Virus record (IMG/VR): IMGVR_UViG_3300010344_001762
Coordinates: 1-10,741 of that record
From: a virus
DNA length: 10,741 nucleotides
Reading direction: 5' to 3' (one strand)
The notes under the pieces are model-generated. The model was not told the DNA's origin, did not search any database, and worked only from the letters and a program-made list of their open reading frames with translations. Both the position numbers and the translations under genes were made by a program. Of this stretch, positions 9,039 to 9,110 are shown piece after piece. Positions within the stretch are counted from its first letter, which is position 1. Each line of letters starts with the position of its first letter.

Positions 9039-9110
9039 GGTTGTGTAGTTCAGTGGTTAGAACAGAGGTCTCTAAAACCTTATACGCGGGTTCGATCCCC
9101 GCCGCAATCA
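9039..9110 (+). tRNA. amber suppressor tRNA (anticodon CTA, reads UAG), 72 nt. Acceptor GGTTGTG/CGCAATC. D-arm GTTC-AGTGGTTA-GAAC. Anticodon arm GAGGT-CTCTAAA-ACCTT. T-arm GCGGG-TTCGATC-CCCGC. Discriminator A.
   Basis: manual cloverleaf with a canonical YU-NNN-RA loop. Confidence 0.8.

Follow-up and report, generated by a model that had tools for sequence, protein, structure and literature searches.

A suppressor-type tRNA(CUA) and a UAG-interrupted Pth2-like gene as a probable translational module in a standard-code huge-phage lineage

What does an amber suppressor-type tRNA do in a phage whose lineage still ends genes with TAG? The question is raised by a 10,741-nt stretch of viral DNA (IMG/VR record IMGVR_UViG_3300010344_001762, positions 1 to 10,741; hereafter the window), which carries a tRNA gene with the anticodon CUA, tRNA(CUA), downstream of an open reading frame (ORF) of the peptidyl-tRNA hydrolase 2 (Pth2) family with an in-frame TAG close to its start. 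The original prediction, made from the letters of the window, held that the phage suppresses or reassigns UAG, as reported for crAss-like and Lak-type phages of Bacteroidota. From the comparison with relatives, we propose that the two genes probably form a two-part translational module of a huge phage that otherwise keeps the standard code: the tRNA would suppress the UAG that gates the Pth2-like gene linked to it.

ARAGORN called the tRNA at 9039-9111 on the plus strand as the last of nine tRNAs in the window, with the anticodon CTA and the same loop register as had been read by eye. The Rfam tRNA model (RF00005) matched 9039-9110 from end to end (68.7 bits, E 1e-13, model positions 1-71, gathering score 29), the top score of 12 Rfam tRNA matches in the window. 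Both agree with the canonical 72-nt cloverleaf, the loop CTCTAAA and the anticodon CUA that had been claimed for this gene. The 72 nt include the discriminator A73, and the CCA end is not gene-encoded. Written by structural segment, the 5' half reads GGTTGTG-TA-GTTC-AGTGGTTA-GAAC-A-GAGGT-CTCTAAA- and the 3' half -ACCTT-ATAC-GCGGG-TTCGATC-CCCGC-CGCAATC-A. The fold is a canonical class-I cloverleaf, with a 7-bp acceptor stem that includes two G-U pairs, G18G19, a 5-bp anticodon stem, a short variable loop (4-5 nt) and a TTCGA T-loop. The anticodon loop, C32-U33-C34-U35-A36-A37-A38, has the normal 7 nt with U33 and a purine at position 37, as expected of an amber suppressor.

An exact-pattern search for the tRNA core in IMG/VR gave no match, because the relatives differ by 1-2 bases, and it was replaced by retrieval of loci anchored on proteins. 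Over all loci, 63 distinct tRNA(CUA) sequences were gathered, and 49 diverse ones were aligned. In this alignment 94.6% of the cloverleaf cells are paired, 20 of the 21 pairs show compensatory change on both sides, and the covariation score is 0.83, against 0.24 for shuffled sequences and at most 0.16 for slid partners. None of the 49 departs from C34, U35, A36 and A37, and the complete loop CUCUAAA is found in 51 of the 63. Stems that drift freely around a fixed CUA anticodon are the signature of selection to read UAG; on this comparative evidence, tRNA(CUA) is a selected, conserved gene whose anticodon stays CUA. It lies downstream of a vault-like gene in all relatives whose flanks are long enough.

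The terminator-like hairpin that precedes the tRNA in the window (Table 1) may limit or process the tRNA transcript. Compared with the other tRNAs of these phages, tRNA(CUA) genes are enriched in stable hairpins immediately upstream (median -9.2 vs -6.1 kcal/mol, p = 2e-5), and where the tRNA precedes the Pth2-like gene, Bacteroidota-type promoter motifs (TTTG...TAnnTTTG) are found in place of hairpins.

One gene with an internal TAG had also been reported in the window, and it is the Pth2-like gene at 7969-8343, in which TAG is codon 8. The first in-frame ATG, GTG or TTG past the TAG comes 95 codons on, 21 codons short of the stop, which means that the protein could not be made without reading TAG. 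Standard-code gene callers left the gene uncalled on all long contigs. Its product matches Pfam PTH2 (PF01981; 33.8 bits, cutoff 23), and the AlphaFold model (predicted local distance difference test score 91.9) has archaeal Pth2 and human Bit1/PTRH2 as its best matches in the Protein Data Bank (PDB), with a template modeling score of about 0.7 and E 1e-6; the top 14 are all members of the Pth2 family. The predicted model thus has the same fold as the solved Pth2 structures (PDB 3erj, 2zv3, 1q7s and 1xty), but the phage protein belongs to a distinct subfamily, 18-31% identical to them, with the invariant residues R18, D20, Q29, H32, W48, S52, Y54, E85-P86-D87 and T93. D87 and T93 are presumably the equivalents of the catalytic Asp and Thr of Pth2. 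Members of this subfamily in Bxz1-type mycobacteriophages are annotated as peptidyl-tRNA hydrolase.

Across relatives, the TAG stands at one aligned position, a few residues before the motif K-L-x-V-I-T-R-R-D-L. With q written for TAG, the N-terminus is MKKPFYYqIHSKL in the window, MKqVNQKL in contig L012, and MKqTNQKL in L013 and L018; among larger phage genomes it is MKqINNHKL in LR756500, MSqIYKL in LR756501, MNNqINETKL in LR745206, MKNqIEETKL in LR756502, MTqITKQ in LR756504 and MKqITKNS in Tenacibaculum phage pT24. The TAG is conserved across contigs L010-L013 as well. A profile-guided scan of IMG/VR recovered 80 Pth2-like loci out of 346 relatives, many of them on contigs of 100-675 kb, and 76 of the 80 have an in-frame TAG at the aligned gate, all with an in-frame ATG 1-6 codons upstream. 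In 40 of the 57 unique leaders TAG is codon 3, and the codon before it is most often Lys (24/57). The base that follows is a purine in 56 of the 57 (A 44, G 12, C 1, T 0). A purine 3' of UAG reportedly favors amber suppression in E. coli, and the leaders fit such a context. Of the other four loci, three, all high in GC, have a sense codon at the gate (MATIK[E/M]GDKL), and one has TAA. The TAG-less orthologues have the same short N-terminus and the same ATG spacing (e.g. MATIKEGDKL). Judged by this conservation, the internal TAG is almost certainly meant for read-through, so that the phage probably suppresses UAG.

The TAA homologue lies at 5998 on a 675-kb contig (L080, IMGVR_UViG_3300035208_009193) and reads MKET-TAA-IYNRLYVITRSDL, with no tRNA whatever within 6 kb; it could be a pseudogene, be ochre-suppressed from elsewhere, or be an error.

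Public protein sets present the gate differently. Among 151 homologues from a collection of 5.8 billion proteins, the full-length ones seemingly all have Q at the gate, and those from long contigs are N-terminally truncated. For three Q-bearing homologues the DNA was inspected, and the codon is TAG in all three; the standard code does not give the listed protein. The Q is an artefact of gene calling on short contigs under code 15, in which TAG is a sense codon (Gln), and it hides the TAG. In pT24, the RefSeq coding sequence gp293 (NC_049383.1, 194218-195036) starts 45 codons late, the TAG being at codon 3. The pT24 Pth2-like domain (NC_049383.1 194083-195036, locus L126) is fused to an extra C-terminal segment of ~200 aa. 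Some leaders have also been duplicated: just ahead of the intact Pth2-like gene lies a second copy of its 5' end, TAG leader included, which after ~25 codons (up to ...QAVQAA) runs into a fused HNH homing endonuclease (L018 11291-12073; L066 5230, L069 1936, L071 1715, L097 5178). In these fusions the endonuclease would depend on UAG read-through too.

The tRNA and the gene are linked. In 69 of the 80 IMG/VR loci the 6-kb flanks contain a tRNA(CUA) on the strand of the Pth2-like gene, either 40-200 nt upstream of it or 0.4-1.5 kb downstream, and in some loci on both sides; the window is of the downstream type, with 696 nt between the two. None of the four TAG-less loci has a tRNA(CUA), and six of the seven TAG-bearing loci without one end within 0.6 kb of the gene (co-occurrence by Fisher's exact test, p = 2e-4, the loci being not all independent). 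In the 462-kb LR756500.1, which has 26 tRNAs, the only one with anticodon CUA is 776 nt from the Pth2-like gene. In pT24, the tRNA-Sup(CUA) at 191520-191593 belongs to the phage's single small tRNA cluster, 2.5 kb upstream of the Pth2-like gene; within this 12-kb locus ARAGORN finds three tRNAs and RefSeq lists four, and four in all are given in the pT24 genome paper.

The same adjacency is seen in the truly TAG-recoded phage Lak-B7 (L127, MK250026.1 340216-352476), where the Pth2-like leader has no TAG and a tRNA with the anticodon UUA lies ~0.5 kb upstream. A suppressor tRNA next to the gene has been kept there and the gate lost; the adjacency of tRNA and gene outlives the gate.

The interrupted leader appears to be particular to this gene. 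We searched 1.28 Mb of non-redundant related sequence for an ATG followed within six codons by a stop, and then by an open stretch of 90 codons or more whose first 15 contain no start. TAG gave 67 such cases, of which about 56 are the Pth2-like gene; TAA gave 16 and TGA gave 10. We rejected the idea that further early-TAG genes make up a larger regulon, as the ~11 remaining TAG cases are at the background set by TAA and TGA. By these counts the early-TAG pattern is specific to the Pth2-like gene.

Suppression of one codon in one gene is a different matter from reassignment of UAG throughout the genome. All plausible plus-strand ORFs in the window end in TAA or TGA. The earlier count of no TAG stop among 12 complete ORFs holds, although one of the 12, at 10168-10605, overlaps the real TROVE-like ORF and is probably spurious, and the count is not significant: TAG accounts for 9-16% of the stops or stop trinucleotides in the lineage, which gives 0/12 a chance of about 0.1-0.3, so the stop codons of the window are not evidence by themselves. 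On a 98%-identical contig of 37.9 kb, TAG ends 5 of 56 plus-strand ORFs, 9% against the 16% expected from off-frame composition (p = 0.08). Genes ended by TAG in contigs 98-100% identical to the window include a 391-aa radical-SAM lysine-aminomutase-like gene and a 123-aa ORF whose TAG abuts the ATG of a complete NAPRTase. TAG-linked fusions of these pairs (the 123-aa ORF with NAPRTase, the aminomutase-like gene with the next ORF) were considered and rejected, since NAPRTase is complete alone and the ORF downstream of the aminomutase belongs to a paralogous family. TAG also ends ~28 ORFs of LR756500 and ~33 of 271 (12%) in pT24, the terminase, a helicase and a ligase among them, and pT24 nonetheless has its tRNA-Sup(CUA).

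Coding density gives the same picture. It was computed from greedily chosen non-overlapping ORFs under code 11 and under code 15. In the window it rises from 0.63 (code 11) to 0.71 (code 15), spurious frames accounting for part of the gain. The corresponding values are 0.82 and 0.84 for the 98%-identical 37.9-kb contig and 0.90 and 0.88 for the complete pT24 genome (234.7 kb), against 0.59 and 0.91 for the Lak-B7 locus, the positive control. Over about 45 kb of the window lineage, code 15 adds at most 0.02, and loci further downstream have 0.81-0.97 under code 11 with no gain. When the complete 462-kb LR756500.1 and pT24 were divided into 20-kb bins, structural regions included, no bin improved under code 15. 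In LR756500.1 the Pth2-like gene is the only clear ORF that needs TAG read-through. Of the two possibilities in the original prediction, then, suppression is supported by the conserved in-frame TAG and the tRNA, whereas reassignment in the manner of crAss-like or Lak phages is not supported: densities are flat, and TAG serves as a normal terminator in the lineage contigs, LR756500 and pT24, an outcome that the original prediction had itself named as refuting.

In the module that we propose, ribosomes initiating at the AUG would run into the UAG as codon 8 in the window and as codon 3 in most relatives. Termination by the host release factor 1 (RF1) would give a useless 7-residue peptide, and acceptance of the charged suppressor tRNA would give the full Pth2-like enzyme, so that its output would depend on how well the suppressor competes with RF1. 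Elsewhere in the genome the standard code would apply, with TAG somewhat avoided as a terminator yet used; because TAG is still a terminator, suppression must be partial or timed. The preferred, speculative reason for such a gate is dose coupling, in which synthesis of a peptidyl-tRNA-recycling enzyme would rise and fall with the activity of the suppressor. Read-through of TAG stops and drop-off at stop codons would generate peptidyl-tRNA, and the enzyme would offset that cost. Alternatively, the enzyme could act on the suppressor itself, giving a negative feedback loop. A fuller form of this circuit, in which the enzyme acts on the acylated or peptidyl form of the suppressor or on read-through peptidyl-tRNAs, fixing the level of UAG read-through under host RF1, and in which an ancient module of Bacteroidota huge phages seeded TAG recoding of the Lak type, is a doubtful extension.

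Several points weigh against the proposed module. A TAG is present with no tRNA(CUA) within 6-20 kb in LR745206, LR756502, LR756504 and contig L096. In 35 of the 57 leaders the TAG is followed by ATT, and in 12 by GTN, so that a non-AUG start after a two-codon mini-ORF is conceivable for many loci. In the window, the tRNA stands directly behind its terminator-like hairpin, which bears on its expression level. A Gln apparently occupies what we take to be the site of the canonical catalytic Lys of Pth2, and hydrolase activity is therefore not assured. That tRNA(CUA) is charged and decodes the gate UAG is itself inferred from comparison. Finally, the sampled part of the window phage lies outside its late-gene region, although late recoding there is unlikely.

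This last point bears on the first of the rival explanations, under which code 15 would apply genome-wide as in crAss-like and Lak phages, with in-frame TAGs mainly in late structural and lysis genes beyond the window and the gate TAG as one of many. The suppressor tRNA and the kinship to the Mahaphage/Lak clade speak for it, as does the absence of TAG stops among the 32 called genes of contigs L001 and L002, which lengthen the window by ~9 and ~5 kb at >99.9% identity; in some phages, moreover, recoding is confined to late genes (Borges et al. preprint). Set against this are the TAG-ended genes of near-identical contigs and the failure of any bin of the 462-kb relative or of pT24 to improve in a density test that picks up Lak-B7 clearly. 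Our sample of the window lineage amounts to ~45 kb, and two hops outward added ~20 kb of auxiliary genes only. Since the late genes of the window phage were not reached, genome-wide recoding is left with a small residual chance, and we consider it quite unlikely. A suppressor that faces outward is likewise unlikely: it would derail host or competitor translation through UAG read-through, or replace or decoy tRNAs hit by a defence system, with the gated gene only a sensor or antidote, and it partly overlaps the module proposed here. The retention of the tRNA in pT24, where TAG ends 12% of the phage's own genes, indicates that it is not there for a recoded genome; its neighbors include other tRNAs, homing endonucleases and RNA-repair-type genes (TROVE/Ro60-like, thioredoxin), and the authors who described Xanthomonas phage XacN1 found no target for its two tRNA(CUA) genes. 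Yet TAG stops are only weakly depleted in the window lineage, and the tight linkage to one phage gene, and the loss of both together, point to an internal client.

It is very unlikely that the TAG goes undecoded, in which case the 2-7-codon mini-ORF would regulate, like the lambda bar minigene, a Pth2-like gene starting at the next AUU or GUN or by re-initiation, and the tRNA would be linked for another reason. Such a start codon follows the TAG in 47 of the 57 leaders. Two-codon minigenes are classic stressors of peptidyl-tRNA hydrolase (Pth), and peptidyl-tRNA-Lys reportedly limits growth when Pth is short, a connection made attractive by the frequent Lys codon before the TAG. However, the mini-ORF is in frame with the gene and abuts it in 76 of 76 loci, which a separate upstream ORF would not need; codons that are not starts (ACT, ACA, ACG, CTT, AGC, AAA) also follow the TAG; TAG-less orthologues keep a sense codon at the gate and the same ATG spacing; and the presence of tRNA(CUA) with the TAG and its absence without it would be left unexplained. 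ARAGORN's label, tRNA-Pyl, suggests a pyrrolysine tRNA, but this label follows from the anticodon alone. Real tRNA-Pyl is atypical, with a short D-loop that lacks G18G19, a 3-nt variable loop, a 6-bp anticodon stem and pylS as a partner. The tRNA(CUA) of the window has the canonical cloverleaf (with a T54-psi-C T-loop), and no pylS- or pylBCD-like gene is among the Pfam matches in the window or the scanned loci; we consider the pyrrolysine reading refuted by structure.

If tRNA(CUA) is the decoder in the proposed module, which amino acid does it carry? The window tRNA has G1:C72 and G2:U71 in its acceptor stem and A73 as its discriminator. Among the 63 family members, the 1:72 pair is G:C in 41, G:U in 10, C:G in 10 and U:A in 2, and the discriminator is A in 44, U in 11 and G in 8. 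The U1:A72, G2:C71 signature of phage tRNA-Gln (19-21 of 22) is absent from the window tRNA, which, as previously claimed, does not resemble the co-resident tRNA-Gln(CUG) with its U1:A72 pair. This mismatch leaves charging by glutaminyl-tRNA synthetase through U35 possible. Derivation from tRNA-Trp is not supported: phage tRNA-Trp has A1:U72 and G73 in 10 of 10 cases, and only the loop is near (CUCCAAA, one base apart). Whole-sequence similarity was uninformative about the isotype: at identities of 60-72%, the best matches were spread among tRNAs for Arg, Trp, Lys, Met, Leu and Glu. The residues aligned to the TAG could not be used either, as TAG-less homologues show Thr, Ser or Pro there; with the gate residue so variable, the codon is conserved as a codon and not for its residue. 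A second TAG in the LR756501 copy of the gene also falls in a variable column (S/T/Q/E). The variability of acceptor and discriminator suggests that the anticodon drives recognition. Added to the proteomic evidence for TAG to Gln in crAss-like phages (Peters et al. 2022), this makes Gln our default guess for the inserted amino acid, and no more than a guess.

The features of the window are collected in Table 1; all of its genes are on the plus strand.

Table 1. Features of the 10,741-nt window, with the candidate module first
Feature	Position	Strand	Basis or remark
tRNA, amber suppressor-type, anticodon CUA	9039..9110	+	ARAGORN, Rfam, homologue covariation
Anticodon C34-U35-A36, reads UAG	9072..9074	+	sequence, ARAGORN drawing
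Terminator-like 14-bp hairpin, then ATTTT	8999..9033	+	ends 5 nt before tRNA(CUA)
Pth2-like (peptidyl-tRNA hydrolase 2 family) gene, 124 codons	7969..8343	+	Pfam, AlphaFold; putative client of the suppressor
In-frame TAG, codon 8 of the Pth2-like gene, then ATT	7990..7992	+	conserved aligned position
Homing endonuclease, GIY-YIG	866-1459	+	
Homing endonuclease, HNH	2319-2759	+	
SiaC-family ORFs, two		+	
Major-vault-protein-like ORF, 848 aa	5287-7833	+	Pfam MVP_shoulder 2e-28, Vault_3 8e-13
Thioredoxin	9178-9525	+	
TROVE/Ro60-like ORF, off window end	10308-10741, continues L001 12158-13858	+	

A megablast search of the window against the INPHARED phages gave no match, and its kinship was traced through proteins and metagenomic contigs. 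The 848-aa vault-like protein is also found on ten metagenomic contigs (ENA, JGI, Logan), and the relatives in IMG/VR include the 37.9-kb contig and one of 59.8 kb at 98% identity and, at the distant end, others at 63-72%, such as a 132.8-kb contig. In INPHARED the vault-like protein matches only the Mahaphage-type genomes LR756500.1 (462 kb, 53%) and LR756501/503 (735 kb, 49%); LR756500 and LR756501 are the nearest records to the window phage. The Pth2-like protein further matches LR745206 (634 kb), LR756502 (642 kb) and LR756504 (636 kb), as well as Lak phages, pT24 and the Bxz1-type mycobacteriophages. The genomes of 634-735 kb and Lak constitute the Mahaphage clade, with predicted Bacteroidetes hosts (Al-Shayeb et al. 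2020). This places the window, as part of a large phage of the Bacteroidota type, in the same neighborhood, the direction of kinship that had first been suggested.

Some further observations concern this neighborhood. The vault-like, thioredoxin and TROVE/Ro60-like ORFs lie close together, and vault and Ro components in one phage are unusual; no Rfam match even at E up to 1 was found for a Y RNA by the TROVE gene or for a theta/hepatitis delta virus-like ribozyme by the tRNA. Upstream of the TROVE-like gene, a non-coding indel of ~145 nt separates the window (10004-10019) from L001 (11716-11875), the contigs being otherwise 99.9% identical. A tRNA-like gene at 338-513 (Rfam tRNA 34.3 bits) has an insertion of ~94-100 nt, which ARAGORN in intron mode takes as a 94-nt intron in the anticodon loop of a tRNA(UUA). 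Its weak anticodon stem and long variable arm make the anticodon uncertain; a UAA reading, if true, would bear on the handling of stop codons. Weak tRNA- or tmRNA-like Rfam matches between the called tRNAs (1631-1755, 1785-1836, 3853-3922 and 4022-4091) may be degraded or unusual tRNA genes. Among the related viral contigs, L021 (10456-12426) and L018 (17478-20298, minus strand) carry ORFs of Bacteroidota outer-membrane type, namely TonB-dependent-receptor-like and OmpA-like proteins and lipoproteins with signal peptides, which could be auxiliary genes, host junctions or chimeric assemblies.

Suppressor tRNAs in phages are usually taken as a sign of a changed code, and in standard-code jumbo phages they have been reported as orphans with no target. 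The proposed module would give the suppressor tRNAs of standard-code huge phages a concrete function, through a linked translation-quality-control target that needs the suppressor. It would be a natural example of how suppression of a stop codon can control a single gene, and it could plausibly represent the opening step of the route that has been proposed to lead from TAG depletion, by way of a gained suppressor, to recoding. It also has a practical side, as annotation under the standard code misses or truncates the Pth2-like gene, and the Q shown at the gate in public protein sets is an artefact. The module is present in a cultured pair, pT24 and its Tenacibaculum host, and is therefore directly testable.

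Within a limited set of literature, suppressor tRNAs of recoded phages are well described, and a TAG-interrupted peptidyl-tRNA hydrolase gene with a linked suppressor is unmentioned in Al-Shayeb 2020, in the Borges preprint and in the jumbo-phage overview of Iyer et al., as well as in a 2026 jumbo-phage survey, the pT24 genome note and full-text searches. The closest known systems are the code-15 phages (crAss-like, Lak and the other families in Borges et al.), which likewise have a canonical-looking tRNA(CUA) and are low-GC phages of Bacteroidota, with TAA preferred as a stop and TAG rarer. Here, by contrast, in-frame TAG is essentially confined to one early or auxiliary gene, TAG is still a terminator and density does not gain under code 15. 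The Borges preprint postulates a stage before recoding, a standard-code phage that has acquired a suppressor. The module would fit this stage and add a fixed, conserved client absent from that preprint, in which no hydrolase is mentioned. Orphan suppressors are known from the cultured jumbo phages XacN1 (two tRNA-CUA) and Agrobacterium phage Atu_ph07 (tRNA-UCA). Like the present clade, these phages combine a jumbo genome in the standard code with numerous tRNAs, a suppressor among them, and with a gene for peptidyl-tRNA hydrolase. For XacN1 its authors report no target, whereas the present clade has an identifiable and physically linked one. XacN1 was considered as a second example of the module and rejected, since the Pth encoded by its ORF295 is a canonical Pth2 whose gene lacks an in-frame TAG.

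Two other systems offer analogies in the logic of control. The prfB gene, for release factor 2 (RF2), is said to regulate itself through an in-frame UGA at codon 26. Like the Pth2-like gene, it is a translation-factor gene with an early in-frame stop, whose own synthesis hinges on how that stop is handled. The analogy is one of logic, with no homology: prfB escapes by +1 frameshifting and senses RF2, whereas here a neighboring suppressor tRNA gene would provide the escape, and suppressor against RF1 would be what is sensed. The lambda bar minigene and other minigenes of 2-3 codons reportedly cause drop-off of peptidyl-tRNA and are toxic when Pth is limiting. They share with the leaders described here an AUG, one sense codon and a stop at the start of a message, and a functional tie to peptidyl-tRNA hydrolase. 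The bar minigenes, however, are free-standing and act in trans on the host Pth, whereas here the mini-frame is continuous with a hydrolase-like ORF and co-occurs with a suppressor tRNA.

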